This document shows, one piece after another, positions 9,639 to 63,187 of a stretch of DNA of 64,000 bases. The stretch lies in NCBI RefSeq assembly GCF_006345805.1, contig NC_042997.1:95418001-95482000 (forward strand), read 5' to 3'. The DNA comes from Octopus sinensis (taxonomy: Eukaryota). Within the stretch, counting starts at the first letter, position 1. Every line of letters starts with the position of its first letter. The notes under the pieces are model-generated. The model searched no databases. It worked only from the letters and a program-made list of their open reading frames with translations, and was not told where the DNA came from. The position numbers and the translations under genes were made by a program.

Positions 9639-9644
9639 TCACCA

Positions 9645-11942: not shown

Positions 11943-12034
<92 letters not shown>

Positions 12035-12054
12035 TTATAATTATTATTATTATT

Positions 12055-13545: not shown

Positions 13546-13573
<28 letters not shown>

Positions 13574-41771: not shown

Positions 41772-42569
41772 TCAGTCATTTGTAGGACCATTCATAAGGA
41801 CTAGTTGAATATCATTTGTGCGTTGTTCAGCAGGACTCACACCAAATTTAAGACAAATATACAAGCACAAAATAGAACCACCACATACGAACACTCCTAT
41901 AGATATCGCAATGGTAGCTGGAAGGTTGCGAGTGTTAGATGGAGTAAGCCTGGAAGATATTGGATAATCTCTAGTTGTAGTGCTTTCATTTCCCGATGTT
42001 AAAGTTGTCTGCATAGGCATTGAGCGAGCATTCGCAGAAACGTATTCAGTAATTGGATATTTTTTCACAATCTGTGAATTCAGGACTGATCGCTTCAAAA
42101 TCTTCGTCTCTCGTTTCAATTTATAATCCGCTACATATTGTGCCATACCAAAATTCTCCTCGAATCTTCGTAGTGAGTTCTGATTATTCTTATATCGACG
42201 GTTAGAAATAATTACGGGTGCCCCCTTTTTTAATTTCTGTGGAGTGATAATGGAAGTATACGGTGGTGTACTGCTAACCAATATGCAGAGGATACTTCTT
42301 TTAGAAATACACCTCAAATATGAGTCTCTTAAATCGGCAAACATGCATCTCCTCAAACAATTCTGCTTCAGATTAATATGGATATCGCGATACTGAGGTC
42401 CTCTATAATTTAAGTCTTCAACTGTAGATTGATTTTTTCTCGAGGAGAGTATTCTAAATTGTCTGCCATAAACACCTATTTCGGAGGTATTTAGTTCTGG
42501 AGATATTTTCAAAACGTTGCACACCACAAGTAAATATTGAGCGAAAAGGACGAAAGCAAACATTCTCAT
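41772..42569 (-). CDS. Uncharacterised type I membrane glycoprotein, 265 aa (paralog A)
   Basis: Hydrophobic N-terminus, Ser/Thr-rich stalk, TM segment IAISIGVFVCGGSILCLYICL and short tail. Collinear similarity to the ORF at 62576-63187. Non-repetitive open frame in AT-rich DNA. Confidence 0.78.
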   Translation of the reverse strand: MRMFAFVLFAQYLLVVCNVLKISPELNTSEIGVYGRQFRILSSRKNQSTVEDLNYRGPQYRDIHINLKQNCLRRCMFADLRDSYLRCISKRSILCILVSSTPPYTSIITPQKLKKGAPVIISNRRYKNNQNSLRRFEENFGMAQYVADYKLKRETKILKRSVLNSQIVKKYPITEYVSANARSMPMQTTLTSGNESTTTRDYPISSRLTPSNTRNLPATIAISIGVFVCGGSILCLYICLKFGVSPAEQRTNDIQLVLMNGPTND

Positions 42570-43289
42570 AGCGTGAAATATGTTGGGGAAACCTTTCTCT
42601 TCGAACCATAAATCAATTTCTATAAGCTAGTTATTAGACAGATGAGTGATTATATAAATTTTCCATTTCCAATTTAAATAATTGAACATTCGAAACATTT
42701 GTATATGAAATAATAGAATTGATCTTTTGCCAAAATGTGAAACAAATATGAAATAATAGAATTGTCCAATAACAATTCTAGTAACACAAAAACCAAGATA
42801 TGTTGACAATATGTAATGACTGAGGAACGATGCATTTATGTACAAATTAAACGGCATATTCGCCACGGTTTCGACTCCTAATTTAAATTATTTAATTTCA
42901 TTTATGAGAACAATTTTATTTCGGAACTGAAGTTCTGAGCATATGCCTGTTAAAAGAAAGACAGTTAAGGTACATCAGAATGCATTATATTTCCCTTTAC
43001 TAAAAAATTAATGGGTTTAGTCACACTTCAAATACCATTAACCCATTCATATAGCTTATTTGGTAATAAGCTCTACAAAAGAAAAAAAAAACTGTAGGTT
43101 AATGAATCCCAGTGCCGATCGTATATATTGATATAACTAAGCATTTTCAAATAGCTATTTGTATACCCTAATCTGAATGATGTAGTTGTTCCCTTTTTTT
43201 CTTTATAACTGATTGTTTAGTTGAGAGCAGCGTAAAGCACTATATTATGCCAAACAACATGTGATAAACAATGAGAAAATAACCCATTG

Positions 43290-44097
43290 AGATCTTTACC
43301 TTTTGACCGACAGATGGAAAAAATAATTTTTTGTAACCAAACACTTTCAAACTTCGGACACTGGTAGAATGTGTCATATAAAACATCTTTTACTCGTAGC
43401 GTTTTAGAGAAAAGCTTATATTTAGGAAGTTACTTCATGTTAAAGTTGTCGTATTTCGGTAATTTCAACCAATTAATGACGTGTATTCAGCTGAAGAAAA
43501 TTACTGCCGTTGTTTGTCAACAACAACTATAGGCAGTGTATGTTTCGCTTGTCACTGTTATTCATGACATCGTTCATGCGTTTGTGCTGGTTTTAGCATT
43601 TAGGGGTTAGGGTTAGGCTTTTAGGGTTACGGTTAGGCTTTTAGGGTTAGGGTTTGAGGCTTAGGGTCTTAGGGATAGTATTTTAGGGTTAGGGTTTTAG
43701 GGTTAAGGTTAGGGTTTTAGTGTTTGGGTTTTAGGGTTAGGGTTTTAGTGTTTGGGTTTTAGGGTTAGGGTTTTAGGGTTAGGGTTAAGGTGTTAGGGTT
43801 AGGGTTTTAGGGTTGTTATAAAAAGCAGTAACAAACGTAATATACACCGCCGGAAGCTTTTGTTGACAAACAACAGCAGTAATGTCGTATATTCAAGTGA
43901 ATACACGATATTAATTGGTTGAAATTACCAAAATACGACAACTTTAACATGAAATAACTTCCTAAATATAAGCCTTTCTCAAAAACGCTAAGAATAAAAG
44001 ATGTTTTATATGACACAGTCTACCAGTGTCGGAAGTTTGAAATTGTTTAGTAACAAAAAATTATTTTAAAAATCTGTCGGTCAAAAGGTAAACAACC
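43290..44097. mobile_element. Long-TIR non-autonomous DNA transposon (Merlin-like) with telomeric-repeat core
   Basis: ~270-bp inverted arms. Exact 8-bp TSD ACCCATTG (43282-43289 / 44098-44105). Right end ..AACC. Confidence 0.85.
43595..43815 (+). repeat. Interstitial telomere-like repeat (TTAGGG and TTTTAGGG variants)
   Basis: Many TTAGGG/TTTTAGGG units are seen directly. Confidence 0.92.
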
Positions 44098-44798
44098 ACC
44101 CATTGCTTCTCAGAAGTGTATATATATATATATATATATATATGAGACGAGAAACAGAAATACGTTCACGTCACACACATGATGCTTATCTAAAATATAT
44201 ACATATATATTGCGATGTATTATGAATTGGATTGTCTTCTCAAACAGAAGACGAGGAGTCCCGCATTGCTTAAGATCTAAAAGCAAAGATCAAGCCTAAT
44301 ACCTCAAACAGTTTCAGGATATCAGCTGATCCAAACTTTGTGAACACTGAAACAGTGCTGTCAGGATTGATTCTTTCATACATAAACGGATGCAGGATGT
44401 GATGGATATGCTTACTCAAAGACTATAACGGAAAGTACTCATCTCATCTAGTGTACTCTTTGTATATATACATATACTCCACTTATTCATATGGTAAATA
44501 CTATATATTGACTTGACATTTAGCCTACCTATACAGCGACGGAGAAGTCATAACTAATGTAACTTTGTTACAAAGTGAAACTAGACAAGTACTATGATCT
44601 CGCTCGCTGTAGGATTGTTATCTCTCCTGTCAGTGCATTGACATGTGCTTCTTTGAGGCCTTAAAAGCTTTCGACTTTTAATTTTAGCAATGTAGGTGCT
44701 CCCCAGCAACATCAGTCACAATTAGTGACCATTGAACTTTTATTATATAGTTTTACATTGCTTGTAGCCGCCTTTGTTATTTTATCACTCTCTCTCTC

Positions 44799-44833
<35 letters not shown>

Positions 44834-44873
44834 ATATGTATATATGTATATATATGTGTGTGTGCATATATGC

Positions 44874-44916
<43 letters not shown>

Positions 44917-44949
44917 GTGTGTGTGGAGGTGTATATATGTATATATACG

Positions 44950-45838
44950 ACATTAGATGATGATATTTTGAATGCAAGCATTGAAGAAAACTCAGTTAAT
45001 GCATCAAAGAAGTTGCAGAGAAATTGGAATTTCCCCAAGGTATTGTTCACGGACACTTTGTGGACATTGGGTATGTTTCACTTCATGACATTTGGGTGCC
45101 TCACAAACTGTCAGAACAAAACTGCATGGACTGGTTTTCTCTCTGATATAGAAACACAATGAAAATAAAATTTACTTGAAACAAATGGTATCTGAAGATG
45201 AAAAATGAAGTGTTTACCATTATATAGCGAGAAAAATATTCGGCAGTAGACGTGAGGATCCTACAAAATAGCTTCCGAAGTAGAATATCAATTAAAAAAT
45301 AACCATCACTTGTGTATGGTGGTATTTCAAAGGCATTATTTACTATGCGCCAATCCCACAGAATCATAACCTCAATGCTGATGAGTACAACCATCAGCTA
45401 GCAATTATAAATAGAAAAATTAACGAATTGAGGCCTGCGCTCTCCAACACGGGTTGTACTCCATCAGGACAATGCCTCACCCCATGTGTATTTAGTTACC
45501 TGCACAAAGTTGCCTGAACTTGGATGTAATCTCTTATCTCATCCAACATACTCACCTGACATTGAACCAACCATGTGACTATGATTTGTTTTCGTCTCTG
45601 CAGAACTGTCCAAAAGAAATATCAATTTACGATTTAGATGATATTCAAACCCACTTCGATAACTTCGTTTCCTCTGAAGCAAATTAATTTTATGCCGATT
45701 ATTTTATGCCTGCTAGGTGGACTAGGGCCATAGAAAACAATGGAAATTACATTAACGAATAAAGATTGAAGTATGTTTTAAAATGTCTTATGTATTGCTT
45801 TTAAAGAAAGCGTTAAGACCTTTTTGGTCAAACTCATA
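44950..45838 (+). pseudogene. Decayed mariner transposase with 3' TIR
   Basis: Fragments LDDDILNASIEEN, WVPHKL, VSEDEK, LHQDNASPH and HPTYSPDIEPT. TIR-like end CTTTTTGGTCAAACTCATA. Confidence 0.85.
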
Positions 45839-46089
45839 TATGTATGCATGTATATATGTCTTTAGGGGTATATATATATGGCTTGTGTTAGTAATACCAG
45901 CGATTATAATTATTTTTATTTTATCGCAATTTGATTTGTTTACATATTTCTCGATAAACTATGAGCGCCAGGCGATATACCAGAATTCCCTAGTGTTGTC
46001 GGGACGTTCGGAGTCTGCGCAGTGATATGATTAGTTAGGGAGAGTAAATCATTAGACGCACATGCTTCTAGTGAGTTAGGATCCCAGAA

Positions 46090-46180
46090 AAACAGGGTCT
46101 CACTGAAGAATTCTCCCTGAGCAAATAAATTATCTTTATTGTTGAAAAGAAAGAAACTGCAGTCTGAGAATTACCGGTTT
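46090..46180 (+). ncRNA. Type I hammerhead ribozyme, copy 1 (predicted cleavage after C46164)
   Basis: Stem I TCTCA/TGAGA; CTGAAGA 46103-46109; extended stem II; GAAAC 46153-46157; palindromic stem III ACTGCAGT; GTC triplet. Confidence 0.75.
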
Positions 46181-46485
46181 AGTAAATGTTTTTATCTTCA
46201 TTTCACTTAATTTATCAAGCTTCTGTATTCCTAACACATATTTCGCCTTAATGTACTGATATATGAAAAATATATGGCTTGTGTTAGTAATACCATCGAT
46301 TATAATTATTTTTATTTTATCGCAATTTGATTTGTTTACATATTTCTCGATAAATTATGAGCGCCAGGCGATATACCAGAATTCCCTAGTGTTGTCGGGA
46401 CGTTCGGAGTCTGCGCAGTGATATGATTAGTTAGGGAGAGTAAATCATTAGACGCACATGCTTCTAGTGAGTTAGGATCCCAGAA

Positions 46486-46576
46486 AAACAGGGTCTCACT
46501 GAAGAATTCTCCCTGAGCAAATAAATTATCTTTATTGCTGAAAAGAAAGAAACTGCAGTCTGAGAATTACCGGTTT
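46486..46576 (+). ncRNA. Type I hammerhead ribozyme, copy 2 (predicted cleavage after C46560)
   Basis: Same fold as copy 1. Distal stem II AGCAA/TTGCT is fully paired in this copy. Confidence 0.78.
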
Positions 46577-46881
46577 AGTAAATGTTTTTATCTTCATTTC
46601 ACTTAATTTATCAAGCTTCTGTATTCCTAGCACATATTTCGCCTTAATGTACTGATATATGAAAAATATATGGCTTGTGTTAGTAATACCATCGATTATA
46701 ATTATTTTTATTTTATCGCAATTTGATTTGTTTACATATTTCTCGATAAATTATGAGCGCCAGGCGATATACCAGAATTCCCTAGTGTTGTCGGGACGTT
46801 CGGAGTCTGCGCAGTGATATGATTAGTTAGGGAGAGTAAATCATTAGACGCACATGCTTCTAGTGAGTTAGGATCCCAGAA

Positions 46882-46972
46882 AAACAGGGTCTCACTGAAG
46901 AATTCTCCCTGAGCAAATAAATTATCTTTATTGATGAAAAGAAAGAAACTGCAGTCTGAGAATTACCGGTTT
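46882..46972 (+). ncRNA. Type I hammerhead ribozyme, copy 3 (predicted cleavage after C46956)
   Basis: Same fold as copy 1, with one mismatch in distal stem II (TTGAT). Confidence 0.73.
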
Positions 46973-47139
46973 AGTAAATGTTTTTATCTTCATTTCACTT
47001 AATTTATCAAGCTTCTGTATTCCTAGCACATATTTCGCCTTAATGTACTGATATATGAAAAATATATGGCTTGTGTTAGTAATACCAGCGATTATAATTA
47101 TTTTTATTTTATCGCAATTTGATTTGTTTATATATATAT

Positions 47140-47205
<66 letters not shown>

Positions 47206-48415
47206 CACACTTTTATCTATACACACACATACACACACATGTATATATATATATCCATATATATACATACGTATATAATTGTTAAAGAAGACAACAGACC
47301 ATTGAGTTATGGTAAACATCTCATGTCGTATACAATATTATCATTGGAAAAATTCTAAGTCTTGCAGCTGTTTCTGGGATATCCCTGAGTATGGGATATT
47401 CCGTGACAAGTTGGGAAAATAGGGAACATAAGAATGGTATATATTAATGAGTTGATGACATAGAAGAAAAGAGTAAAAGAATAAGGAGATGGAAAGAAAA
47501 AAGAAAAAGAGAAAAAGAGCATAAATGTTCATAGTTCAACTTACCGTTGCTGAAGAAACAAGAGCATAAGTCCTTAGGCGCAATTCTGCATAGATCCATG
47601 TAGGTTAAATACCAGATATAGTAAACATCCAGAGGAAAAAGACGCGAACATATCGATGTTCAATAGCAGACTGGTAGCGGAGGTGGCTTGTAAGTGGTAA
47701 AAGGAAAGTATAGAAAATATATATAGATAGATTGAGGTGGTAAAAGGAAAGTATAGAAAATATATATAGATAGATTGAGGTGGGGAGGGAATTTATAGAC
47801 TGGCTTTAGGAAAAAGTAAAGTGTATAGGGGTATAGTGTCTAAGAATTGTGTATCGGTTAGCCGAGAAGAAAAGGGAGAGGATTAGGAGGTAGAGGAAGA
47901 TAGGGTAAAAAATAGGGCAAAATGAAAGGAATTTAAAGAGAGCAGAATGTGTCTGTGGTAGTCTTAATGACTACAGCTGTTGGGAAGAAGATCTAGTAGT
48001 AAATAGCTGTGTCTGTTTTGGCTAAGGTCAGTAGTTGTAGAGTTATTTTTAACAAACAGTTATTTTTAACAAACATGTTATGGGTGTATAGGTAGCCGAG
48101 AATGGAGGAGCTATTTGAATGTTAATTTATTTATGAGTGGGAGTTATAGTCAGAGGTTAGGGGATTTATTGGATTATAGTTTTAAAATAAATTTAGGTTA
48201 AATTAAAGAATTAATATTTATCTCATAATTGATGAGGTAAGGTAGATTGAAGAGATTTAATACATAAGGTATAAATAAGAGATATAGTGATATAGGATAA
48301 ATAGAAGAGGTAAAAAGGTGTATGTGTTAACCCACAACTCACCACAATTGCTTAATAAATACAACGGGGCCTTCCCTACGTGTAAGCACAAATTCTTCCG
48401 CACTTTTAAATTCTT

Positions 48416-49030
48416 TCATAGATCTAAATGTAAGTTCACCCCACGCAAATAGTACCCAATTACAAACCCCTTGTTGTTGGTGAAGCAGAGATCCAATATA
48501 TTATTCGCTCTGGTTGTTCGGAGCACCATTTGCTCAATGAATAGGGCATAGGTGAGGGTGAGCAGGGACTCCACCAGTACTTGTTTGCAATGAGTCATTC
48601 CTAAGAGCATAAGGCCCTCGGGCCATTTGACAGTAGAGAAGTTGAAATCACCCATAAGAAACACATTCACATCTTGTTCCAGTTTCATGAGGGTGTCTTT
48701 TATTCTTCTGAGGCAATCTTCAAATTTATCCGCGTGATTTGTAACATTCGATGGGCGATATGTACTGCATATGATTATATTATGTTGTCTTATGGATATA
48801 TCTTGAGTGTCATTTACTGAATTTCAGTATGACAGTAGTACCTGGAGTGAGAGGTCCTCACGGATGTATGCAGCAACTCCACTATGGTTGCTTTCCTTTC
48901 TGTTTGTTCGCAGTATACTATATTTTGGTAAGTGTACTCCTGCATCCCCTATAAGGTAAGTTTCCATGAATGCTATGCATTAGGGCTTGATTGCATGCAG
49001 CAAGGTCTCTCGGAGAAAAGATTTTGCTTT
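48416..49030 (-). pseudogene. Apurinic-like endonuclease remnant of a CR1/L2-group LINE
   Basis: VFLMGDFNF, TRANNILDLCFTN, and upstream GVAAYIRE and IICSTYRPS motifs. Contains stops and frameshifts. Confidence 0.8.
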
Positions 49031-49885
49031 TGTTGTAATGGAACTGGCCTCCAAAATTTAGTAAAAATATTGCCGTGACGACAATGCTGTTGACTGTTGT
49101 TGGTAAGGATCCGTGTTTGCGCTTGATGTAGCTAGGTCAGCTACTGCACAATCTTTTGCACCATGCTCAGAAAAGACACTTGCACAGCTGCTGCTTTTCG
49201 TGTAACATCTGAAGAGCGCACTGCATCATGCATACTTTCTCTTTGAAACGATAAGTGCCTCACCTCTGGGAAGAATTGACACTTAAGACACCTGCAGTTT
49301 TAGCGAGGTCTTGGGTGAGCAAACAGGCAGTTTGTACCGTTCTCCATGCCAAAACTTACGTTGCAGGTAAAATGTTCACGTCTTTCTTGTCTTTAATTCA
49401 ATTTTCTTCTATCATTAGAGTTGGGGAATCCATTGGAGACTATATACTTCGGTTGATTTTCGTTTTTTGTTCGTTGGTTTTGGGTTTCGCTTTTAATTTT
49501 AGATGTTTCGTCATTTCCAATTCCTTTCCCTACCACTCTTTTTTATGTTTTTGCTCGTGGTTTTTCCGTCCTTTACGGGTGCTGGCCTTATGTCCCCTTG
49601 GTTGTTCACTGGGGAGGGGACTCCACTCTTTCGTGTGACCACAAAGAATTATGTTTGATGAATCATCTCAAATATCTTTATCAGTATTACTACAGTTATT
49701 TTCCTTGTGACACCAAGAGTATCAAAAGTGGTATAATAAGGGCAGAGAATCGGATAAATTTGTGTGTATATATATATTATATATATATATATATAACGTA
49801 TGTACGTATATATATGCCTATATGGATATATATTTATGTTTACTTCAAAGATAGATAAACTTTTTTGTAATGATTGTGATTATGA

Positions 49886-51658
49886 ATGTATATTGTTGTG
49901 ATTATAAATATCGCGGTAAATGCCAGTAGCAATCCAAAAACCTTCTTTGCCCATGTCCAGCGGAATTCCCGCTTGAACAACCAGATTGCAACGTTGGTAG
50001 ACTCAACAGGCGTATCGATTGAGGACCCTTATCAACAGAGTCAATTAATTGCCGAGGCCTTTTCAACTATTTTCAAACGAGATGATGGTCGTGAACCCCC
50101 TCCATTTGATAGATCGGTACCTCCAATGCTCCGATTGGTCATCACGCGGGACGAAGTCAAACGTGTTATTCAAGGCCTCGATGTCAACAAGGGTCACGGC
50201 CCTGACGGCATACACCCACGGGTTATCAAAGCGTTGGCTCCGGTCATCTGCGAGCCCTTAACACGACTATTCAATATGTCATTGGCGACGGGTGTTATAC
50301 CTGCAGACAGGAGAACAGCGATAATCTGCCCAATTTTAAAGAAAGGGAGCCGTGAAGACCCGCTTAACTACCGACCGGTTTCCCTTACATCAATAATCAG
50401 CAAGATGTTCGAAACCATCCTTAAGAAAAGTATGATGCTCCACCTCCTAAACACAGCCTCTATCTCTGATTCCCAACACGGCTTCGTGCCGAAGAGATCA
50501 TGCTTGACCAACTTACTAGTAATGGAAGAATTGGTGACGCGCATCCTCGATGATAGTGATGCTGTTGACATCGTTTTATTGGACTTTGCCAAAGCTTTTG
50601 ACTCGGTAAACCACCGCCTATTACTTGTCAAGCTTCAAGCATATAGTTTCCATCCGGATATTATACGATGGGTTGGTGCCTTCCTCTCAGATCGCTCCTT
50701 CCAAGTCCAAGTTAATGGTTCGCGGTCCGACGTCTCCAGTGCGAGCAGTGGCGTGCCTCAAGGTTCAGTGCTTGGGCCCTTGTTGTTCTTAGTCTTCATA
50801 AATGACTTGCCCGACGACCTCACGCAACACACCCTTCTATTTGCCGACGATATCAAACTGGTCGCTCCCCGCGGTAATATAGAGGATCTTCGTCGATGTC
50901 TCCACCAAATTTGGAAGTGGTCTAACGATTGGGACCTGTGTCTGAACGTGTCAAAGTGCTGTCATCTGCCTGTCGGCTCTACTCCTGCAACTCAACTTGA
51001 TTTCGAGCCGGGTCGTCTGCTGCTGGAGAGGACCGATCAGGTAAAGGACCTGGGTATCTTGGTGGATTCCTCCTTTTCGCCTTCGGCCCAGTGCGTCCAT
51101 GCTGCCAACAAAGCACGTGGAACACTGTTCTTGATTCGACGGTCATTCGGAATGCTCACAGCAGCCATATTCCTACCATTCTATGTCACGCTGGTGAGAT
51201 CCATATTGGAGTATGGGATTCAAGTCTCTTCTCCTTATCTCCTCAAAGACATACAGTATCTCGAAAGAGTCCAGAAGCTGGCTACCCGCATGGTTCATGG
51301 TCTCAAAAATTTGTCCTACGAAGAAAGGCTGAGGACGCTCGACCTTTATTCTCTTGAAAAATGCCGCCGCCGTGGTGATCTCATTCTCGCCCACAACATC
51401 ATAAGCGGAAAGTGTAACCTCTCGAAAGAGCTGTTCTTCACTCCTGCTCCAGAGCGTCGGCTGCGGGGTCATTCCGAAAAGCTCTACCTGCGACGATTTC
51501 ATCTCAATCGAAGGAGAGGAGCTTTCTCCGTCTGGGTTGCGGATCCGTGGAACAAGCTGCCAGACGAGATGGTGAAGATGCCGACGACCGCTTTGTCCAA
51601 AGCCTCCCTGGACTTCAAGTGGCCTGAACTCTTTACAGGAACACCACCCTGTACTTAA
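49886..51658 (+). CDS. Reverse transcriptase of a 5'-truncated CR1-type LINE (no endonuclease retained; the annotated start lies in flanking DNA)
   Basis: Motifs GPDGIHP, NYRPVSLTS, QHGF, LDFAKAFDSV, GVPQGSVLGP, LFADDIKL, DLGI, RRRGDLI, RGH and WNKLP. Confidence 0.93.
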   Translation: MYIVVIINIAVNASSNPKTFFAHVQRNSRLNNQIATLVDSTGVSIEDPYQQSQLIAEAFSTIFKRDDGREPPPFDRSVPPMLRLVITRDEVKRVIQGLDVNKGHGPDGIHPRVIKALAPVICEPLTRLFNMSLATGVIPADRRTAIICPILKKGSREDPLNYRPVSLTSIISKMFETILKKSMMLHLLNTASISDSQHGFVPKRSCLTNLLVMEELVTRILDDSDAVDIVLLDFAKAFDSVNHRLLLVKLQAYSFHPDIIRWVGAFLSDRSFQVQVNGSRSDVSSASSGVPQGSVLGPLLFLVFINDLPDDLTQHTLLFADDIKLVAPRGNIEDLRRCLHQIWKWSNDWDLCLNVSKCCHLPVGSTPATQLDFEPGRLLLERTDQVKDLGILVDSSFSPSAQCVHAANKARGTLFLIRRSFGMLTAAIFLPFYVTLVRSILEYGIQVSSPYLLKDIQYLERVQKLATRMVHGLKNLSYEERLRTLDLYSLEKCRRRGDLILAHNIISGKCNLSKELFFTPAPERRLRGHSEKLYLRRFHLNRRRGAFSVWVADPWNKLPDEMVKMPTTALSKASLDFKWPELFTGTPPCT

Positions 51659-51725
51659 CTCCATGTCTCCCTACATGGCCTTGCTATTTGCTTTTGAGCC
51701 AAATTAACTAACTAAACTAACTAAC
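49905..51725 (+). mobile_element. CR1-type LINE copy with short 3' UTR and (TAAC)n tail
   Basis: Abrupt GC increase at ~49905. Tail AATTAACTAACTAAACTAACTAAC. Confidence 0.88.
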
Positions 51726-52683
51726 ATATATCTTGAAAGAACGAGCAGAGGAGTGAAGTGAGTTCATGTGAAGACTTGCACTATTCAACTTTGAGTGGGC
51801 GGTTTCCTTTTCAACCTGATTTGATCTACATTATATATATATATATATATGCACATAAAAATATCAATAGGTACACTTATTTTTTATGCAATTGAATTAT
51901 ACAAGCTTATTTTATTTTATTAACTTTTAGTTTACTTTTTGTAATATATGTCATATAAATTGAAATAAAAATGGACGGCCCACTCATTTTGGGTAAATTT
52001 AAGTCATTTTAGACTGTTTAACTTTACCCTTCTGCCCAATTAATTTATGTTGCATATATATTATTACTGATACTTTATTATTACTTTCTAATTTTAATTT
52101 TAAATTATTATTTTTTAATTATAAGGATCTAAGTTCTTGATAACAATAATATTGTGCTGCAACTTTTAAAAGTGCATAGGTACAAAGATTTAACAGAATT
52201 AATTATGATATAAATGAAATAATAATAGTTTTTTACTGTTAAAAATTTGCACTTAAAAATCTATTTTCTGTTTGATAATTTCTATACATTATTGTAATTT
52301 TTATCTTTGTTTGATGAAATGGTTTTGTCGTTTGGTTGTAACAGTAGTCACCTACCATTTTTTCTGCCTTAAAATATTCATTAGATTTGTATGTATTTAA
52401 GATTACAAATGATTTAAAATTTTTAAAAAGTGCAACAAAATGCGTTTTGGTGAATTTTTATGAGATACTTTAAAAAAGTATTAGTAATTTTTTAGAAATA
52501 AATACCTACTTGTTTCTTTCTTTTTAAAGTCTAATATTGGTTGATATTTCTTCAATAGAGCATTTTGTTGAATTACTTTATTTTCTTTTTCAAGAAATCT
52601 TTTCCCATAAAATTTGTTCCCTTTTTAGATTATATTTTTAAGCATTAAATTTTCATCAAGAAAAAAACAAGTACCAGTACCTA

Positions 52684-52907: not shown

Positions 52908-53384
52908 AAACCAAGTAACAGTACCATCGTTAGCCCGTTATCATAGGTTTGCACCCACATACCGCGAGGAGGTGATAGTTGAATTTAATGGGGGAAAGCT
53001 GCAAAATATTTAGTTTATTAGTTTATTAAATAGAGAAATACAATTTCATATCTTTTAATTCATTTAGTTTTTAAAAATTTGATTAAATACGTTCAAAAAG
53101 TAACGCAATAATAATATTCATTTTAGAAAGGAAATTGACATTATATGCCGTAAATTGAGTGTCACTAATAATATTCCAATTGTCATTATTTTTAACTATG
53201 CAAGTATAATGACTACTATTGACTTCATTCAATGTATACATTATGCCAGCTTTTGATTTAAAATTAGTGCCAAAAATATTTTGCTTTCTGGTATTAAAAT
53301 ATGTGAATTCAGCATTAATTCTTCTGACAATATCATTATTATCAATAGCATCGCCACTTTATAAAAAAAATATAAATAATGTTA

Positions 53385-54055
53385 AAGGCAATTTCTAAAA
53401 GAAAGAATATAATTTCGAAAAAAATATACATTGAGAACTATTAAAAGTAAAAATTATCTTATATTTAATCCAGTATAAATATCTTTTTTAAATTAAAAAA
53501 AAAATTAAATTTGCGCTTAAAAGACATTCCAAAAATATTTATGGTAGTGTCAGTGTTTCTGTGTTAGTTTTTATTGTATCAATATTAATTATGGTGGATG
53601 GAGTATTTCCAAGCAATCTTCCAAATGTCGATCAGCATAGCAAACGTCTTGAATTTGTAAAAATACTTTGTCGTTAAAAAAATATGTATCATCATGTTTG
53701 AATGAAATTGCGACGCTTTGCAAAGATCTATAAAAAAATTAATGAAAGTAAAAATTTAAATTTCGATTTTTTCAAAAATCGGCGATTTTTCGCCATTCTA
53801 AAAAAAATTATAAATGAAATAATTTTAAATGCAAATTCTAAAAGAAACAATATAGTTTCAAAAAAACTATTAAAAGTAAAAATTATCTGATATTTAATCC
53901 AATATAAATTATTTAAAAAAAATTAATTTTTAATTTTGTGCTTAAAAGACATTCCAAAACAAAAAAATGATAGCGTCAGGATTTCTCTGTTAGTTTTTAT
54001 TTATGGTAGCGTCAGTGTTTCTGTGTTAGTTTATATTATATTAATATTAATTATG
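53385..54055 (+). repeat. Diverged ~210-bp direct repeat (period ~445 bp), probably DNA-transposon derived
   Basis: ACTATTAAAAGTAAAAATTATCT..GCTTAAAAGACATTCCAAAA..TTATGGTAG.GTCAGTGTTTCTGTGTTAGTTT occurs twice. Confidence 0.7.
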
Positions 54056-55047
54056 ACCTGCCGCTAGCCGAGCCGCAGTAATAACAATGAAAATCGATAG
54101 ACCTCTCGTGTAACACCAAAGAGCGTATTAGATTTCAGTGGCTGAATGAAAGTCAGAAAATGATGACGACTCAAAAATGCAAATAAAATTCTAATTAATG
54201 AATTAAGAATAAAATTTTAAAAATACAAATTATATGTATTTACAACCCTTGTAATACAAGGAACATGTTAATATAAGTTTCGTTCTAATGAGTTAATGCA
54301 TATAAATAGTAGGACCCGGGTGCGCATTAGGCATTTATAGACGAGCACGTCGTTCGAGCCTCTAATTTTGTTGAGACTCGCACTCAGCCGTACTCGTCTA
54401 ATGTGAGTAGCCTGCATAAAAGAGTCAATAGACAACATATTTTTCATGTAAAATTAGTGTACATTTATACACAAAAGAGGTTAGCCTACCAGGACACCTT
54501 ACAGGCTAAAAAGAGCAGTCAAAATCCAAAACCAAGATTAAGAGTAGATTTCGAAGGGGATGAAAAATAAATACATTTTCCATAGTTACCACATGTACCT
54601 AAGTTTCTAACATTAATGAACAAACAAAATAGATTTTGACATCGGTGTTCTCATCACCCCGGCGCTACAATTGATTTATATTGATGAAATTATAGACAGC
54701 ATATGTCCCATTTACATACATTATATTATTTCAAATACATCACACAAATGCAGTTATAGTCGGTAGCAAATAAAAATATATGTACCAACGTCAAAATTAC
54801 GAAAAGTATATTACGATAATATATATAGGGTAGAAAAATAAGAGAAATTCTCTACAAATGGCTGTGGGCCTTTGTACTCTATACTAGTGCAGCACCTGGT
54901 CCTGAATTTATACGGAGTACGCGGTTCCTTTGGTACAATACAATGGCAGCCAGTTCTGGCATTTGTATAACACTCGATGCCAAATTTAGATACTCGCCCT
55001 TCAAGTAGAAAATGTTATGAGGGAAAATGTCACGAAATTTTTTATAA

Positions 55048-55140
55048 ACTGGCAGAAACGTTAGCGCGTCGGGTGAACTTCTTAGCGATATTTCGTCTGT
55101 CTTCACGTCTTGAGTTCAAATTTCGTCGCGGTCGACATTT
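55048..55140 (+). mobile_element. SINE 5' fragment (family of 52684-52907)
   Basis: CTGGCAGAAACGTTAGCGCGTCGGG..GAGTTCAAATT..GGTCGAC. Confidence 0.6.
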
Positions 55141-55357
55141 CCATTTCGGATCTTAGTTCAAATACCACAGCGTTATTCCTTACCTTTCTGTCGTATATAC
55201 TGTAAATAAAAGTATAAGCAGAACGGGGCTCATTACACCCCACACACGCCTTTAATAATTAGTAGATGCATGTGTAAATCAGAAACCATCATGCATGTGT
55301 TTACGTATTCATAATTGTATGTGCACACACACACACACACATATACATATATATCTC

Positions 55358-55831
55358 TTGAAAGGTATAACGAATAGACGCTCTAATTGATCAAAACAAA
55401 TTTATAATATTCCAATATTATAACAAATCAAACGTATATATTAAAACATCGCAGAATGCTAAAACTCAATCGCATAAAATATATACATGTATACGAATAA
55501 GAGGGGGATAAATCCTAAACGATAATACGAGTGAAGTTGAATGAAGAAAAATATATGGATTAAATTAAAGCATAATAAAAGCATTGCCTTAAATTTTTAG
55601 CCGCTTTTATTATTCATTAATTTAATCCATATATTTATCTACATTCGACTTTACACGTATTACCCTTTTAGAATTTTTCACCATTTATTCCTGTATGTGT
55701 ATATTTTATGTTATTGGGTTTTACCATTCGATGCCCTGATGTTTTAATATATATTTATGTTCCATTTATAATATGGGAATGTTATAAACTTGTTTTGACC
55801 AATTAGAACGTTTATTCGTTATATCTTTCAA
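55358..55831. mobile_element. AT-rich palindromic MITE/foldback
   Basis: TTGAAAGGTATAACGAATAGACGCTCTAATTGATCAAAAC is inverted at ~55792-55831. Inner arms ATATATGGATTAAATTAA / TTAATTTAATCCATATAT. Centre ~55590. Confidence 0.8.
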
Positions 55832-55936
55832 TTTACTTTTCTTTTTGTTTCAGTGTTACACGAGTACTACCGTATGCAGTCCCTCTTTATTCTTCGGTTT
55901 AACGAAATTATAAAAATATCCTTACATACATACCGA

Positions 55937-56135
55937 AATTGTATTAGCATGCTGCACTGATGGCACAAAACTGTCATATTTTATAATTTTTAGAAGACAT
56001 TGCCTAAAGAAAGGATACCCAATGGCATTTATGTTCGTGTCCACCCTAAAGGTTTGATGGATGAGGGAGAAATGAAACTGTGGCTTGATAAGGTTCGGTC
56101 CAGGTGACTTGGTGGGCTATTACAGAAACGTGCAT
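55937..56135 (+). pseudogene. pogo/Tigger-family DDE transposase fragment
   Basis: IVLACCTDGTKL..IIFRR/TLPKERIPNGIYVRVHPKGLMDEGEMKLWLDKV.SR*LGGL. Confidence 0.8.
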
Positions 56136-56681
56136 ATTTTTCTTACACCTGAAATTTCTTCTAAACTGTGACTTGCTATATATTCATTTTATTGGTACGT
56201 TATCTGCGTATCTGTATATCTGTGCATATATATATAGCATGATTTATTCGTGATAAGGTGTTCGAAAACTGAGGTACTACTGTATACATATGAAATGTAT
56301 ATTAAAAAGTGGGCCGTGTGAAAACTCATTTAAATGGGGCTGTGAACCAGTGTGAAACGATTTTGAACCACTGTCTTTAGCTTTTGCAAATGATATACAC
56401 TCAGGATTGTCAATGGACTATCTTGTCTCAAGCATTCACATTACAAACTGTGAAATCGTGTTTTTATTTTTTTGCAGTGTTTATCTTTTTTGAGAGAGTC
56501 TAGACATATTCTGTCGCAACGCTCTCCAAATGCACCCCATTGCTGAGCAATATATTCATTTTATTGGTACGTTATAAGCGTTCCAGAGTTACATGCAACT
56601 ATCTGTGGTCAAAAATCACTTACATTTATTTATTTATTTATTTATTTATTTAGAGAAAATTGTGTTAATAGATTACGTATA

Positions 56682-57054
56682 TCTCTCTCTATATAAACGG
56701 CAGTTTGTCTGTGCATTTTCTGTGTGTTTTCTCGTACCCTCACTCTGACCACGGCTTTCAACCGATTCTGATGAAACTTGACACATAGCCCAATGTCATA
56801 ATTCAAAACTAACGCAGCGAAAATTTTGAAAAGTCCCCCCCAGTTCTCAAAAAAAATCGATAAATTCGACATGGGGTCGAGAATCAGAAACCCAAACCAC
56901 AGACCGTCTAGGGGACGCAACTCCACCTTTTTTAACTCAAAAAAATTTACCATCATTTTTTTTCCATTTTTTGGCTATTTTTTGGCTATAACTCTAAAAA
57001 TGCTTTATAGTTATTTCCCTTACAAACCCGAGCAACGCCGGGCGATACTGCTAG
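56682..57054 (+). mobile_element. Non-autonomous Helitron
   Basis: 5' A|TCTC..TATATAAA; 3' hairpin CCCGAGCAACGCCGGG followed by CTAG|T. No TSD. Confidence 0.85.
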
Positions 57055-57429
57055 TTAAATATAAAACAGTAAACCACATCGTTTGCCATCGTGAAATGCC
57101 TGTAATATTGTGTCAGCTCTTCTGCATGGTACATTTAAATTTCACCTGAATTACAACATCCATACTTCAATCAAAACTATTATGAATAAGGTAAATAATA
57201 TATTCTAACAACATGCTCATTCTTAAGACAGAATGTGTCACTGGTACATTTTTTAAAGATAGAAGTTTACTGAAGCTTATTACGGGAACACGTCGTCGTG
57301 AAATATTCTTTTTCGGCCTATTCGTCTGTTCAAAGAATTCTATTTCGAGGTAAGATTTTCAGATGAAATTTAAAGAATACAGTAGTGTCTATTTTCAGAG
57401 AATTTAAATTATAGACAGAAGATACAGTC

Positions 57430-58680
57430 AGTGAAAATGTCGTTGCTCCGTTCATGTGCCTCACCTAGATGACGGGAGATTTGTCTGGTTACATTTGTAT
57501 CTTTCACTAGTTTTAATGTGTTTGGTCCCATCGTGCACATCGGGACACGCAGAATGGAATAGACAGTCAAGACTGGATCACACACTGAGAAGACGTAGCC
57601 GGTACCGGGTATTACAATAGACAGTTCCATCTGATTAGGTTAATACTGAGACCGAGTCCAGTCTACACCCTACCCCAGCCTTGCAATGGTAGCTCAGGAA
57701 ACAACATCTCATGCACATACAACGATCTACTGGTCACGCTCTGGACAAGCCCTAGGTTACTCCCTCAACATACTGTACATGCAGAGTATAGCAGTTCTGC
57801 ACAGTAGTCACCGAAAAGTCTTGTCACGGATTCCCATCGCCAGTAGCCTCTCCTCTGAGGGCTGGAATCATGCGCCGCAAGAGCCACCGGTGAGTCCGCG
57901 CACTTCAACTGGCGACATAGCTCTCAAGGAGAGAGTTACGCAGTCCGTATTTGCGTACATTTGCATAGGCCGCCCCCTATTCGTAACAGTTATGTCGACG
58001 ACTACTTTTTCAGAATAGCGAAGTACCAGGTCGGAAACCAGCTTGGTAGTAGAAGTTCGGTAGGCCCGATCCCATCCGACCTCCCAGTCATATTTGTGCT
58101 TCCTTCGTTACCAGCAGTCATAGATTCCTATGCCTGGTCATTCTGAATTTAAGCCCGGATACTGGCCGCTGACGCGAGCTATCGAGTCAGTCCTCTTTCC
58201 ACGACGCGGACAGGTAGCGGAGCCTCTGCCTCCGTTTGTAAGTCACCCCCGGGTAGGAAACGTATTGGAGCGCATGTTATGTAACAACAAGTAGCATTCA
58301 TCAGTTATCCGTCCCGGGCGTAAAATCCAACCTCTTTCCGATTGAACCCGAACGAAATGACAACGCGCAGGCACGCTGAACGTGTTGGGATGCCCACCTA
58401 TCGGAGTACACTCGGGAATATACGCTCACGCCTAAACGAATCAAAAGATCGAAACCCGAAACCATGTCTTGGTTCAGATCGGCAAGGCCGGTTGCCTTAT
58501 TACTCGGACGAGCTCGTATCTTAATATTAACAAGCGAAGTTTCTGTCAAATATTAGCGCATCATCCGCCATCACTCCGACTACAATATAGGAAATGAAAA
58601 GACGTCGATTAAGGAAGGTGGAGTATTCTACGGCCTCCCAAAGAGATGGTTGTGTCCACCCTCTCGAAAAAGCATTAACC
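57430..58680. other. CpG/GC-elevated segment, probably a decayed retroelement of unassigned family
   Basis: Compositional contrast only; no recognisable protein motif in the short ORFs. Confidence 0.3.
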
Positions 58681-60330
58681 CATAAAGCGAAGCTGATAAT
58701 CTTGTTCGATCATTCGTCGAGGTTTCAGAGGAGCATGACATTTTATCAATACTCCAGTTAAGCTTCCACAGAGTCGAAACCGAACTCCATGTGTCGATGC
58801 AATTCTAAATAGGGAACCAGATTTACTCTTCATTTTACAAACTGGAGAAAAGTGTTTTGCATTCCAGCATTGAAGTAAATTTTTAATAAAGCAACAGTGA
58901 ACGAGGTAAATAGCATTAAAAATGATTGAGGTATTTTCTTTATTGATATTCAAAATTCAAAGATACATAAGAAATACATTCATTAACTCCTCTCCTCCAT
59001 AGTGTTACAAATGATATTGATGAATAGGAGGAACTACTTTTATGTAAGAATTGTAGTTTAGCAAATTTACTCTTGAAATAAAGGTTTCAATTACTTAGTA
59101 TATGCACTAATAATGTATCTAATCACTTTAAATGCTTATTTCCATGACTTTCAAGTGACCTAAAAAAAATATCCAGCACTATCAACGCTAGAATTTGAGT
59201 ATCTAATTAGTTCTTTATATTCTGGTACTTCTCACGCGAGGAAAGAAAATGGATTGCATTCTCGCATGTAAAAAGGAAATGTAAGTGTATTCTGCAAATT
59301 TTGAAGACTAAATTTAGAAATTCAAGTTTGAAAAAAAAATTTAAACAACGGATGCGGCACATGAGAATCTTCGCACGAACTGACAAAGTAGATTTCGGGC
59401 TTACACTTTCACCCTCAATGTCATGTGTACAGTGCGAAAGCAAATCCATTTCATATAGATGGCCTACTTACTGGCAGAAAAAAAATTCATCGAAATAAAA
59501 TTCTATAAAATGAGTTCCGATTGAAATCCAGACATTGCTAGAACAAAAAGGAATGCCTATCTGCCTTGAACAGCATGGTTTACTAACCGTTGACAGTTTA
59601 TCAGGTAGAGTGTTGATGCTCTGAAGAGCAGAAGTAAAATATTTTACAATCCTTTTTAGCATTCACTGACAAAATTTGAAACCCTTCCTCTTTTTCTTTG
59701 AAGAAAGAGATGCATAAGCGCTTTCAATCAATTTTCAGTTTAGTCATATTTAGTGAGAGTTTAACCTATTTCTGCTTTACTCTGTAAACAAAGAATATTT
59801 CAGATATTCTGTCTATTAAAATAAGCAGTACGTACTTGCTAAATGGTTTCCCACGTCCCGTTTAGCTTCTTTTAACCCTATTTGGACACCCTGGTGGATT
59901 GATCGGCCATGTGATACAAGCTGAAAGGATTATTACACTTCAGGACGATAGATCGTCCTTCAGTTGATGTATCTCAATAGAAGAGAAATTGATATTTAGG
60001 GATACACATCGAAACACGGTGTCTCAAAAGGGTCAATATATTAAAAGTATTAAAATCAAATGTAGTATTAGAAAAACTTGAACCTAATGCAATATAGAAA
60101 TTTTTTTTGGAGGTAGAGGAGTGTACACAAATAAGTTTGCTTGTACAATTGACAGTCAACTGATTTAAACTGCCGACTTTTCTTCCGTGGAGAAAAGTTG
60201 CAATATTTAAGACATTTTCTGCATTGTAGTAAAAATATAAAGTAACAATTGGGTATATCTAATCTACACAAACTACGGATTTTAGCAAACAAAGAAAAAT
60301 CATCAAAAGAAAAAAATTAGCAAACAAAAA

Positions 60331-61070
60331 AAATCTTTTCCTTTTGAACGGCACATGTCAACAATTTCTAGTTAACTAGACACTTAAACTTCGTTTACTG
60401 GTAGAATGTGTTTATAAAAAAATTTTCTTGGCTTTCAGAAAATTCTATAGTTAAGATATTTCGAGCATTTCGGCAATTTTAACCAATCGCTGACCTCCAT
60501 TTGGGGTTGAAAATATTCCGTGCTGTATGAATATGTCCCTCGTTTAAGAAACAGATTGGGTTTATTTACATTTGCGAAGAAAAGACAACCTTCCCCCACT
60601 CCTAACTCTAAAATAGATTGAAATGCAATAGATCGATACTAGGGTTATAATTATGGGTGACATTTTCATTTGACACCGCTAGAAAAATTCCATTTTCCGT
60701 AGCGGTGTCGTAGGAAATTGTCACCCATAATTATAACCCTAGTATCGATCTATTGCATTTCAATCTATTTTAGATTTAGGGTTAGAGTTAGGTTATGTTT
60801 TTTTTCTTCGCAAATGTAAATAAACCCAATTTATTTCTTAAACGAGGTACATATTCATACAGCGCGGAATATTTTCACCCCAAATGGAAGTCAGCGATTG
60901 GTTAAAATTGCCGAAATGCTCCAAATTAAAGTGGAAATATGTTACAGCATAGAATTTTCTCAATAACGCCAAGAAATGTTTTGTAAACACATTCTACCAG
61001 TATATGAAGTTTAAAAGTGTTTAGCTAACTAGAAAGTGTTGACATGTGCCGTTCAAAAGGAAAAAAATCC
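60331..61070. mobile_element. Palindromic long-TIR element related to 43290-44097
   Basis: ~350-bp arms with an 18-nt spacer (GACACCGCTA 60672-60681 / TAGCGGTGTC 60700-60709). Termini ATCTTTTCCTTTTGAACGG / CCGTTCAAAAGGAAAAAAATCC. Short TTAGGG-like tract in the arms. Confidence 0.85.
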
Positions 61071-61305
61071 GGAAAAAAAAAAAAAAAAAAAAAAAAATTA
61101 GCAAACAAAAATATTATCAAAGAAGAAATTAGCAAACAAAAAAAATTTGCAAAAGGAAAAACTAAATTGCAAAAAGGAAAAAAAAAAAATTTGCAAATGG
61201 GAAAAAAAAAAAATTTGCAAATGGGAAAAAAAAAAAAAATTGCAAAAAGGAAAAAAAAATTAGCAAAGAAAAAAGATTAGCAAACAAAGAAAAAATTAGC
61301 AAACA
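61071..61305 (+). repeat. A-rich minisatellite (AAAAAATT(A)GCAAA..)
   Basis: Seen directly. The poly-Lys ORF 61044-61280 is an artefact of it. Confidence 0.85.
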
Positions 61306-62575
61306 GCATTGTAGTAAAAATATAAAATGACAATTGGGTATATTAAATCTACAAGTTTAACTACGGATTTTAGCAAACAAAAAATAGTAAACAGAAAAAA
61401 AATGTTGATTCCACTCAAATACATAAAGTGCAGTTGCCAATGTCAGTTTCTTTATAAGTATTCAGGAAATACGAATCTAATTTTAGAATTTTGTAACCGA
61501 TTTGATAGACTGAACATTGATTAGCAAATTACTACGTAAAGGCAGCAAAATATTACTTTTATGCTAGAACTAGATTTTAAAATGTTATTCTTTTCTATAA
61601 AAAAAGAGAAAGGATTTATCCGGATTATATAATAGGCAGTACGATATTCCAGTATTACGGTTAGGCTTTGTTTAAAATACTTTTCAGAGCTAGGACTGTC
61701 CGTTTAATATAAAGATTCACACCAATGTTACCTTTAGCGAGATTATTTTGTCGCATTTGTATTCTGATTTTATGATCAAGTTAACGATTTCAAATTAAAG
61801 TCTCGAGATTTGACCAAATTTACCACTAATCATTAATATGCTTTCTATGGAGATATAGTTTAATTCTTTTAATTAGAGTTGGCATTTGTTGCTTCACTAA
61901 AAATTCTAAAATAAATATCTTACTAACTTACTTAGCCCCCCAAAATAACACAGAAATGAAGATATATCTAAAGTTAATTAAAATGCCATATATGAAATAG
62001 ATTCAAATTCGTTTTAATTGCAAATAGTTTGCATGAAATAGACGTAAAAGCGAACGGGGTGTTGATAAGAAACAATCTATTTCCAATCATTGAAGTTTCA
62101 GTAAATATTTCGCAACACAACTATGTATTATTAAAACGCGAGAGAAGACACTAGAGTAACAAGTTCAGGTGTTTTATCATTATTACTTTGTTAGTTTACG
62201 TATTTGAGTGAAAACAGTTCAGCAGACAAAAAAATTCTGTTTAAGATGAACACTAGGATAATTTCAATTGTGTAAAGAAGATTAGATAAAAATATAAAAA
62301 GTTTTGGGATTTTTTTTTTCTTTTTTCAAATGAAGATTGCTTTAATGTTCCAAAACCTTGTAATTTATGATAAGCATATTATCAGAAAGATCAGATTTAG
62401 AAATAGGCAACCCCTAAGTAGTTGATTACAACCACGAAAAAGTAATATATAATCGAAAGTTATTAAAAATTTATAAAATTAAAAGCTTACAGGTTAGTTA
62501 CTTATGTTAGTTCATCTATAGGTGGTAGAAGAGTATAAGGGCGCCGATATAGATATCTTATGAAAAAAATGCGTC

Positions 62576-63187
62576 TCATATGCCGCTCAAAGGTGGTCGT
62601 ATAGTGGCTAGCTCCATCGCATTGTCGCGTAGTTCTGGATAATAGACCGCTGGATTCTTCAAACGTATGTATACACAATAAATGCATATGGAGAATATAA
62701 CTATTCCCAAACATACTGCAAGGATACCTACAATGTAGGAATGATTAGCTTTGGTATGAGGATTATTGGTAGTTGTCGGGTAATCAGCAGCAGTTGTAGT
62801 AGTTCCAATTTGTGAAGTAAAATTGGTGGGATCAGACATGGTGGAATCATTTGGAGAAACACGTTCAATTGCTGGAGAATTTGTCACATTCGTTGAATTC
62901 AAAATCGACCGCTTGAAAATCCTCGCCTCTCCTTTCGGTATATCATATTTCATATCAGTCACTTCCGGGGTAACGTTCGGCTTACACAATACAGTGTTAT
63001 TATCAAAAGAGTAGTATTCGTCTCCTTTGCATTTCAAGTTTCCAACCGTTAGATTTTTCAACTCGTGACGAATTTTCAGCGGCTCGCCATAAACAGCTAC
63101 ATTAGAATTATTAAATTCTGGATATAATATCGCGAAAGCGAGAACCACAAATAAGCGTTGAAACATAGTAAAAGCGAAGGAAGCCAT
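62576..63187 (-). CDS. Uncharacterised type I membrane glycoprotein, 203 aa (paralog B)
   Basis: Signal-like N-terminus, about nine NxS/T sequons, Thr-rich stalk, TM segment YIVGILAVCLGIVIFSICIYCVYI and a ~30-aa tail. In-frame TAA 3 codons upstream of the ATG. Paralogous to 41772-42569. Confidence 0.82.
   Translation of the reverse strand: MASFAFTMFQRLFVVLAFAILYPEFNNSNVAVYGEPLKIRHELKNLTVGNLKCKGDEYYSFDNNTVLCKPNVTPEVTDMKYDIPKGEARIFKRSILNSTNVTNSPAIERVSPNDSTMSDPTNFTSQIGTTTTAADYPTTTNNPHTKANHSYIVGILAVCLGIVIFSICIYCVYIRLKNPAVYYPELRDNAMELATIRPPLSGI

Follow-up and report, generated by a model that had tools for sequence, protein, structure and literature searches.

What are two long open reading frames (ORFs) doing, some 20 kb apart, in a repeat-rich stretch of octopus DNA, and do they encode proteins that the public gene models have rendered only in part? 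In this article, I will discuss 64,000 nucleotides of Octopus sinensis (contig NC_042997.1, positions 95,418,001 to 95,482,000; hereafter the window, numbered from its first letter) and the two ORFs within it, A and B, a genuine lineage-restricted pair that has been mis-annotated, is apparently undescribed and follows an architecture already familiar from other proteins. An earlier reading of the bare letters (the sequence-only reading) had proposed that the pair defines a fast-evolving, lineage-specific family of type I membrane glycoproteins at the cell surface, and such a family is supported here because a third homolog, P0005, has the same layout, an unspliced contig from sequencing run X8 runs over B, the divergence between the copies preserves the reading frame, and no match to a known family was found.

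Two open frames and their common origin

Both ORFs lie on the minus strand in uninterrupted frames, A at 41772-42569 (265 amino acids (aa), P0001) and B at 62576-63187 (203 aa, P0002), and the spacing between them is 20,007 bp, just as the sequence-only reading had placed them. Their start contexts, CACGCTATG and CACGCAATG, have the form CACGC(T/A)ATG that had been pointed out, and every motif pair quoted for them is present in the two translations (six were located by script). Local alignment of A with B scores 158, where shuffled sequences average 33 and none of 1000 shuffles scores as high, and BLASTP gives an E value of 6e-14 with 70 of 269 columns identical. The alignment had been described as running end to end, which stands for ~65 residues at the N-terminus and ~115 at the C-terminus and not for A residues ~66-150, which are poorly alignable to B, with a net insertion of 62 aa in A. 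A and B are paralogs. Only these two of the 20 ATG-initiated ORFs of at least 100 aa in the window combine a leader with a C-terminal transmembrane (TM) segment and have no internal one, and the window holds four ORFs of at least 200 aa, two of them reverse transcriptase (RT) ORFs of long interspersed nuclear elements (LINEs), versus one in 20 simulated windows. GC content is 34.6%, microsatellites and LINE fragments are abundant, and no third copy was found inside the 64-kb window by tblastn, a six-frame hidden Markov model (HMM) search or nhmmer.

At the DNA level the resemblance continues beyond the ORFs, for ~330 nt on the upstream side and ~600 nt on the downstream side (nhmmer E values 5.7e-10 and 4.5e-22), each side scoring above 200 of 200 shuffles and the upstream flank also above 500 of 500 non-self pieces of the window. 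The matching extents are:

41167..42898, minus strand: DNA homology around A (nhmmer)
62024..63516, minus strand: matching DNA homology around B (nhmmer)

Because the 5' and 3' flanks align too, A and B arose by tandem duplication at the DNA level, and a retrocopy of one gene from the other is ruled out, since the aligned 5' flank reaches beyond the ~78-nt leader of B's likely transcript. Percent identity of flanks versus coding sequence (CDS) was discarded as evidence, shuffled controls giving similar values (0.54-0.57).

The frames themselves have been kept. In neutral simulations, which modelled substitutions only, 0.3 substitutions per site left the frame open in 0 of 2000 trials for A and 7 of 2000 for B, and the synonymous divergence actually observed between A and B is 0.8-0.9 per site. 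All five gaps in the aligned CDS are multiples of three, versus 6 of 18 in the flanks.

A shared layout, a third member and the public gene models

The anatomy of the two proteins is as follows, an arrow marking the predicted cut:

41772..42569, minus strand: CDS of A, 265 aa, with three N-glycosylation sequons
42510..42569, minus strand: hydrophobic leader of A, predicted signal peptide, residues 1 to ~20 (hydropathy, (-3,-1) scan, model helix; cleavage site weak)
42294..42308, minus strand: first site of A, ISKR↓S, after residue 91, of the form I-x-K-R↓S and at the N-terminal distance seen in B and P0005
42090..42296, minus strand: cationic 69-aa segment specific to A, between its two sites, net charge +10, pI 10.3
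42087..42101, minus strand: second site of A, ILKR↓S, after residue 160 and in register with the B site
41925..42089, minus strand: Ser/Thr/Pro-rich stalk of A, 55 aa, 33% Ser plus Thr (S+T), with invariant TTT-x-DYP
41850..41924, minus strand: predicted TM helix of A, with invariant A-x-x-x-G and C-x-Y-I-x-L
41772..41849, minus strand: predicted cytoplasmic tail of A, 25 aa, and stop, with the R-x-N-x-x-x-L motif
62576..63187, minus strand: CDS of B, 203 aa, intronless in the contigs examined, with nine sequons
63128..63187, minus strand: hydrophobic leader of B, predicted signal peptide, residues 1 to ~20 (hydropathy, model)
62909..63127, minus strand: N-terminal segment of B, ~73 aa, with Cys53/Cys68 and four sequons, predicted to be released by cleavage; no confident fold
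62906..62920, minus strand: I-F-K-R↓S site of B after residue 93, predicted convertase site, whose I, K, R and S do not vary among the three proteins
62738..62908, minus strand: mucin-like stalk of B, 57 aa, 37% S+T and 46% S+T+P
62663..62737, minus strand: predicted TM helix of B, best conserved against P0005 (19/26)
62576..62662, minus strand: predicted cytoplasmic tail of B, 28 aa, and stop (from the sequence)

The sequence-only reading had suggested looking for further copies, and this gave one extra full-length homolog. A profile of A and B searched against 1.84 billion representatives returned three proteins, and a three-sequence profile searched against the 5.8-billion set returned the same three out of 2466 candidates (106-464 aa). 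Public models of the loci discussed here account for two of them, and the other is P0005, a full-length protein (194 aa) encoded on a Logan contig of 1,829 nt, with 54% identity to B and 30% to A; it may be the B ortholog of a more distant octopod. By region, its identity to B is 11/22 in the leader, 25/54 in the N-terminal segment, 7/10 at the KR site, 26/48 in the stalk, 19/26 in the TM and 13/26 in the tail, and it retains every element: leader, I-x-K-R↓S site, S/T-rich stalk, TM and tail motif. A, B and P0005 are thus a small family of which three sequences are known.

All three begin with a hydrophobic leader of ~20 residues and a segment of 66-74 aa that ends in I-x-K-R↓S, continue with a stalk of 53-57 aa (28-37% S+T, invariant TTT/DYP) and a TM of ~25 residues carrying the invariant A-x-x-x-G and C-x-Y-I-x-L, and close, after basic residues, with a tail of 25-30 aa containing R-x-N-x-x-x-L. 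P0005 has six sequons, and both B and P0005 have two ectodomain cysteines, the first of which is missing in A. The four KR↓S sites (two in A, one each in B and P0005) all read I-x-K-R↓S; counted from the N-terminus, the first site of A and the single sites of B and P0005 lie after residues 91, 93 and 86, and counted from the C-terminus, the second site of A and those single sites lie 105, 110 and 108 residues away. That A has two separate sites is new beyond the sequence-only reading, and by shuffling the chance of such an extra site is about 0.023. An origin of the A insert by internal tandem duplication is unsupported, since 301 of 2000 shuffles of the protein and 517 of 1000 of the DNA score as high, and just the short second KR↓S is suggestive of an internal repeat.

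AlphaFold, run on three sequences, predicts helices at the leader and TM only, with mean pLDDT (its per-residue confidence score) of 45 and 41. A sequon is retained 5-9 residues past the hydrophobic stretch of the leader in A, B and P0005, a position that would suit a cleaved leader better than an uncleaved N-terminal anchor, and the conserved cysteine sits where the TM meets the cytoplasm, so that it would more plausibly be palmitoylated than form a disulfide outside the cell. Type I topology is very likely, and the proposed order of leader, ectodomain, KR↓S, stalk, TM with cysteine and tail holds up as a prediction, conserved as a whole in P0005.

The public models tell a different story. 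CAI9715547.1, from Octopus vulgaris, corresponds to B and shares 75 identical residues with it, and XP_029645722.1 (LOC115219683), from the O. sinensis RefSeq set, is identical to A over residues 76-226; the shared parts match at 100%, which places the window in the common-octopus group. Both begin at an internal methionine and splice out at or inside the TM, leaving the RefSeq model of A without leader and without TM; the TM that they drop is the best-conserved region between B and P0005. Their second exons are:

58675..58841, minus strand: second exon of CAI9715547.1, joined to a donor after 62728, where the TM begins; none of the four runs examined shows this joint
38805..38865, minus strand: second exon of XP_029645722.1, joined to a donor after 41893, inside the TM; it lies within a locally repeated stretch

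That repeated stretch, 37734-39248, holds several segments with mutual similarity of 73-88%, the second exon of A's RefSeq model among them. LOC115219683 has no mention in the literature searched or in the readable supplements of PMC9712504 and PMC9815951, and could occur in large tables or subscription papers beyond these; topic searches of the literature, at the level of listings, gave no description of the A/B/P0005 family.

Which of the two structures is transcribed can be asked of B. For positions 62400-63400, 24 sequencing runs are listed, ten of which, from four studies, contain the stretch, and seven of these ten are small (14-88 million letters); a share of 0.00 in the other 14 is uninformative on absence. 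Four of the ten (X1, X4, X8 and X10) were mapped over 61330-64000, the region of gene B only, where parts left uncovered in X1, X4 and X10 do not count as evidence. In X8 (87 million letters, the size of a transcriptome), a single unspliced 1,970-nt contig of depth 367 starts at 63265, takes in all of B and continues beyond 61330, covering the TM segment with no coding difference from B, and X4, from a different study, has an unspliced 656-nt contig at 62490-63145 of depth 10.6. X8 has no cover at 63310-63579, where X10 (1,503 million letters, DNA-sized) continues across, and run size and cover pattern together suggest that X8 is an RNA run. The contigs carry no RNA strand information, and the X8 transcript was given its strand from the ORF; it would consist of a ~78-nt 5' leader without upstream ATG, the CDS and, on the 3' side, a further 1.25 kb or more.

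61330..63265, minus strand: span of the X8 contig, likely transcript of B, extending 34 nt beyond the stretch mapped; strand taken from the ORF
63275..63289, minus strand: TA run, possible TATA box or assembly break point, 10-24 nt upstream of the X8 contig start

An X10 contig likewise ends at 63275. The 3' end of B's likely transcript was not located, because there is no AATAAA at 60900-62575 downstream of B, only five ATTAAA; the X8 contig seems to stop in a region of long A-rich tracts at 61061-61303. A dispersed repeat occupies 63600-63900, directly upstream of B's homologous flank, and many divergent X8 and X10 contigs stack there. Depth differs strongly from run to run, a hint that expression of B is restricted, and B could then serve as a cell-type surface marker.

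Could the public models be right after all, the main products being spliced and TM-less, or the ORFs being exons of larger genes? Two independent annotations agree in splicing out at or in the TM, B offers a plausible AG↓GTATCC donor, and a minor soluble form could exist since contig assembly loses rare isoforms. However, unspliced contigs span the B donor in two of the four runs mapped and none of the four has the joint listed; the TM is what P0005 conserves best; the HMM search, blind to length, found no longer protein; and A's second exon falls within the repeated stretch. I consider this explanation quite improbable. For B at least, the unspliced, high-depth contig of X8, a probable RNA run, points to a transcript, and B is very probably a protein-coding gene.

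Predicted processing, known designs and rival readings

The reading that I favor, at somewhat better than even strength, is that A and B are intronless type I glycoproteins, cut by a convertase, whose anchored stalk serves as a recognition or adhesion molecule. The leader would be removed as a signal peptide; the ectodomain would be N-glycosylated at the sequons (nine in B, three in A, six in P0005), the stalk O-glycosylated, and one disulfide formed in B and P0005. Within the secretory pathway, a kexin-family convertase would then cut after KR, at one point in B and at two in A, releasing a fragment of ~70 residues and, in A, the cationic 69-aa piece in addition; cleavage at KR is itself fairly likely. 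What remains, a stalk of 53-57 aa with TM and a tail of 25-30 aa, would stay on the surface of a restricted cell type, possibly dimerizing through A-x-x-x-G and palmitoylated on the inner cysteine. Going by convertase site preferences, the enzyme would more likely be a convertase other than furin, since the site is without the P4 arginine of RX[R/K]R. Octopus likely has convertases, since the spiralian genomes sampled, including that of O. bimaculoides, keep six kexin-like groups (10.1101/802215, in excerpt).

Several observations weigh against this reading and should be kept together. The (-3,-1) sites of the leader are weak, and the KR site departs from the furin consensus as quoted in PMC2174952 (in excerpt). 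The TM is spliced away in both public models, and it is in the TM (7/26) and tail (5/22) that A departs most from B. None of the runs containing B is on record as RNA, X1 (listed share 0.75) covered only 3 of 30 bins and none over the ORF, and the 5' ends of the X8 and X4 contigs differ. The two coding differences in the examined contigs, V72F and D188N, are both non-synonymous. Finally, the rates of non-synonymous (dN, 0.58-0.61) and synonymous (dS, 0.8-0.9) change between A and B give a dN/dS of 0.67 (95% bootstrap confidence interval (CI) 0.47-1.00; 195 codons), or 0.70 (CI 0.47-1.05) on 175 better-aligned codons, and 0.97 within the site-plus-stalk region. Amino-acid constraint between A and B is weak and formally not separable from neutrality, and selection is mainly visible as frame retention because dN/dS is 0.67-0.70 and its CI reaches 1. 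The earlier argument that frames open despite divergence betray selection therefore survives in frame retention, which is a stronger signal than amino-acid conservation, and is tempered by a dN/dS interval that reaches 1.

The same figures invite the reading that B is functional and that A, a duplicate under relaxed constraint or in decay, has yet to lose its open frame and inflates the pairwise dN/dS. P0005 is much closer to B than to A, A carries the insertion, has fewer sequons and diverges most in TM and tail, its RefSeq model omits leader and TM, and the transcription evidence covers B only. Against this stands the longer of the two frames, which even at 0.1 substitutions per site stayed open in just 56 of 2000 neutral simulations, together with indels that are in frame and with leader, site, DYP, TM and tail motifs that have been kept. 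Decay of A is accordingly an improbable account, and A is likely still functional.

Turning to known families, none of the three members reaches threshold with any Pfam family, every score among language-model neighbors (Atlas), unnamed clusters included, is in the range 0.81-0.88, below the level that counts (0.9), and a Protein Data Bank sequence match to INO80 (21 bits, E 0.0013) was judged spurious because A and B read as secretory-pathway proteins. A fold search of BFVD gave no matches at E up to 0.001, with a poor query model (pLDDT 45). The sequence-only reading had recognized no domain, and Pfam, Protein Data Bank sequences, Atlas and viral sets agree with it in giving no family match. 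Capture of a viral or transposon envelope-like gene would explain ORFs that are intronless, fast-evolving, predicted to be glycosylated and furnished with a dibasic site, and a TTAGGG array does lie ~1 kb upstream of A. It is nevertheless very improbable: two short patterns searched in viral_contigs, a search of limited sensitivity, gave nine matches of which none was confirmed; the only relatives among 1.84 billion proteins are Octopus proteins and a single Logan sequence; a second hydrophobic segment resembling a fusion peptide is absent from the anchored piece; the TTAGGG array lies inside an inverted-repeat element; and the RT ORFs of the window belong to separate LINEs.

The nearest language-model neighbors of B are PRIMA1, TMEM154, glycophorin A, SMAGP and Mucin-15 (scores 0.81-0.87), all of them chordate clusters that share 101-144 of 256 features and have no Pfam match to the octopus proteins. 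With glycophorin A the three proteins share a small-x-x-x-small TM motif, whose role is known from glycophorin. PRIMA1 is defined by a proline-rich attachment domain, and membership was rejected, there being no PF16101 match at E up to 10 and no proline-rich run (Atlas 0.86-0.87).

By design rather than by descent, the closest comparison is PSGL-1, which, like CD43, has a single coding exon. A, B and P0005 share with PSGL-1, by hydropathy and models, a leader, a paired-basic site, an S/T-rich stalk, a single TM and a short tail. In the excerpted account of PMC2174952, PSGL-1 has a signal peptide, a propeptide (18-41) ending at a paired-basic PACE/furin site RX[R/K]R, a stalk, a single TM and a short tail, its N-terminus being variable and its TM better conserved, and its mucin region spans 250-280 aa of decameric repeats with the motif T[D/E]PP[D/E]. 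The octopus proteins differ in having I-x-K-R↓S at all four sites, a pre-site piece of ~70 aa with cysteine that is three times as long as that propeptide, a stalk of 53-57 aa without decameric repeats or T[D/E]PP[D/E] (as that account gives them), and a cysteine at the inner TM end, and there is no sequence match; as for the tyrosine sulfation, core-2 O-glycan and selectin binding of PSGL-1, they have an invariant stalk D-Y-P, far from the predicted new N-terminus. A and B may thus work like PSGL-1-type mucins but are not members, and the mature protein would act as a miniature mucin of that type with a long propeptide, outside the PSGL-1 family.

CD164/endolyn, which occurs in invertebrates, is likewise a type I glycoprotein of ~200 aa with mucin stalk and ectodomain cysteines, and its hallmarks include an N-terminal mucin domain (PMC4510537, in excerpt). 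Its Pfam family MGC-24 (PF05283), the most pertinent of the weak Pfam matches, scores 8.8 bits against a cut-off of 28.5 (E 2.6) in one of the three members, B. The N-terminal piece of the octopus proteins is only 8-12% S+T, there is one stalk and no N-terminal mucin domain, a terminal YXX-phi is absent in A and P0005 while B has an internal YPEL only, and A and B have one coding exon versus seven in CD164. Membership was rejected on the PF05283 score, the N-terminal mucin domain and YXX-phi. Coleoid genomes, moreover, hold clustered orphan genes without similarity to known proteins, including unnamed tandem arrays (PMC9068888, in excerpt). A and B are also clustered orphans, but they number two copies in the window, are membrane-anchored rather than structural, and have no sequence relation to the reflectins, suckerins or unnamed arrays.

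The length of the pre-site piece raises another possibility, that A and B are membrane-tethered precursors of a new secreted signal or effector, in which the released disulfide-bearing glycopeptide of ~70 aa (and in A also the cationic piece) is active and stalk, TM and tail serve only its sorting and presentation. Here it matters that the released piece is three times the PSGL-1 propeptide (18-41, in the excerpt of PMC2174952), that B and P0005 retain both cysteines, that nine positions are invariant over all three proteins, that the second I-x-K-R↓S of A lies at the matching N-terminal distance (p about 0.023), and that A's insert is strongly cationic. Yet the N-terminal segment is conserved no better than the stalk (25/54 versus 26/48) and is less conserved than the TM, no confident fold was obtained for it, and A is without the first cysteine of the pair. 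I regard the tethered precursor as unlikely, if the least unlikely of the alternatives, and the anchored piece as slightly favored to bear the main function. A more specific version, in which octopod-specific tethered precursors yield ~70-aa glycopeptide ligands and A's cationic effector peptide, diversifying in a recognition contest within one tissue, is a doubtful proposition, and equally doubtful, taken jointly with the precursor reading, is that the contest would be one of gametes, immunity or self/non-self.

The surrounding window and the meaning of the pair

Other features were noted in the window. About 0.7 kb upstream of the A start, 43295-44092 is an inverted-repeat element with 279-bp arms 86% identical, resembling a miniature inverted-repeat transposable element and enclosing the degenerate telomere-like (TTAGGG)n array at 43607-43814. 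A near-perfect 755-bp palindrome (84.5%) at 60336-61064, with ends that share 70-76% identity with that element's arms, is followed by the A-rich tracts of 61061-61303, and an unrelated AT-rich 487-bp palindrome (80%) at 55358-55831 is probably another foldback element. The other features are:

6510-10142, plus strand: nearly intact ORF of a non-LTR (long terminal repeat) retrotransposon, 1042 aa, with RVT_1 (E 4e-29) and a weak zf-RVT; one stop, then 167 further in-frame residues, which hold a motif of restriction-like endonuclease type; presumably an R2/R4-like element
11899-13800, minus strand: fragmented ORFs resembling a second, degraded LINE of the same type
22243-22590, plus strand: ATG-initiated ORF, 115 aa, ordinary in composition and unmatched in Pfam; it may be a chance frame or an exon belonging to some unrelated gene
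45874-47135: 396-bp unit triplicated in tandem very recently (3.2 copies, 99% identical), with no open frame across the unit in six frames
49886-51658, plus strand: 590-aa LINE RT ORF (RVT_1, E 1e-32) between A and B, GC 44-48%

What, then, would the pair mean? Short of evidence for a ligand or a role in recognition, specialists would find it of use but hardly a surprise, because coleoids are expected to have orphan genes in tandem and because single-pass proteins of this small, mucin-like kind are common. If confirmed, two public gene models, both lacking signal peptide and TM, would be corrected, and as long as they stand, these truncated models hide A and B from secretome and surface-protein screens. 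Furthermore, the two-site design of A would provide a direct test of whether a propeptide can turn into a released product after duplication, and the octopus repertoire would gain an undescribed, rapidly evolving cell-surface family.

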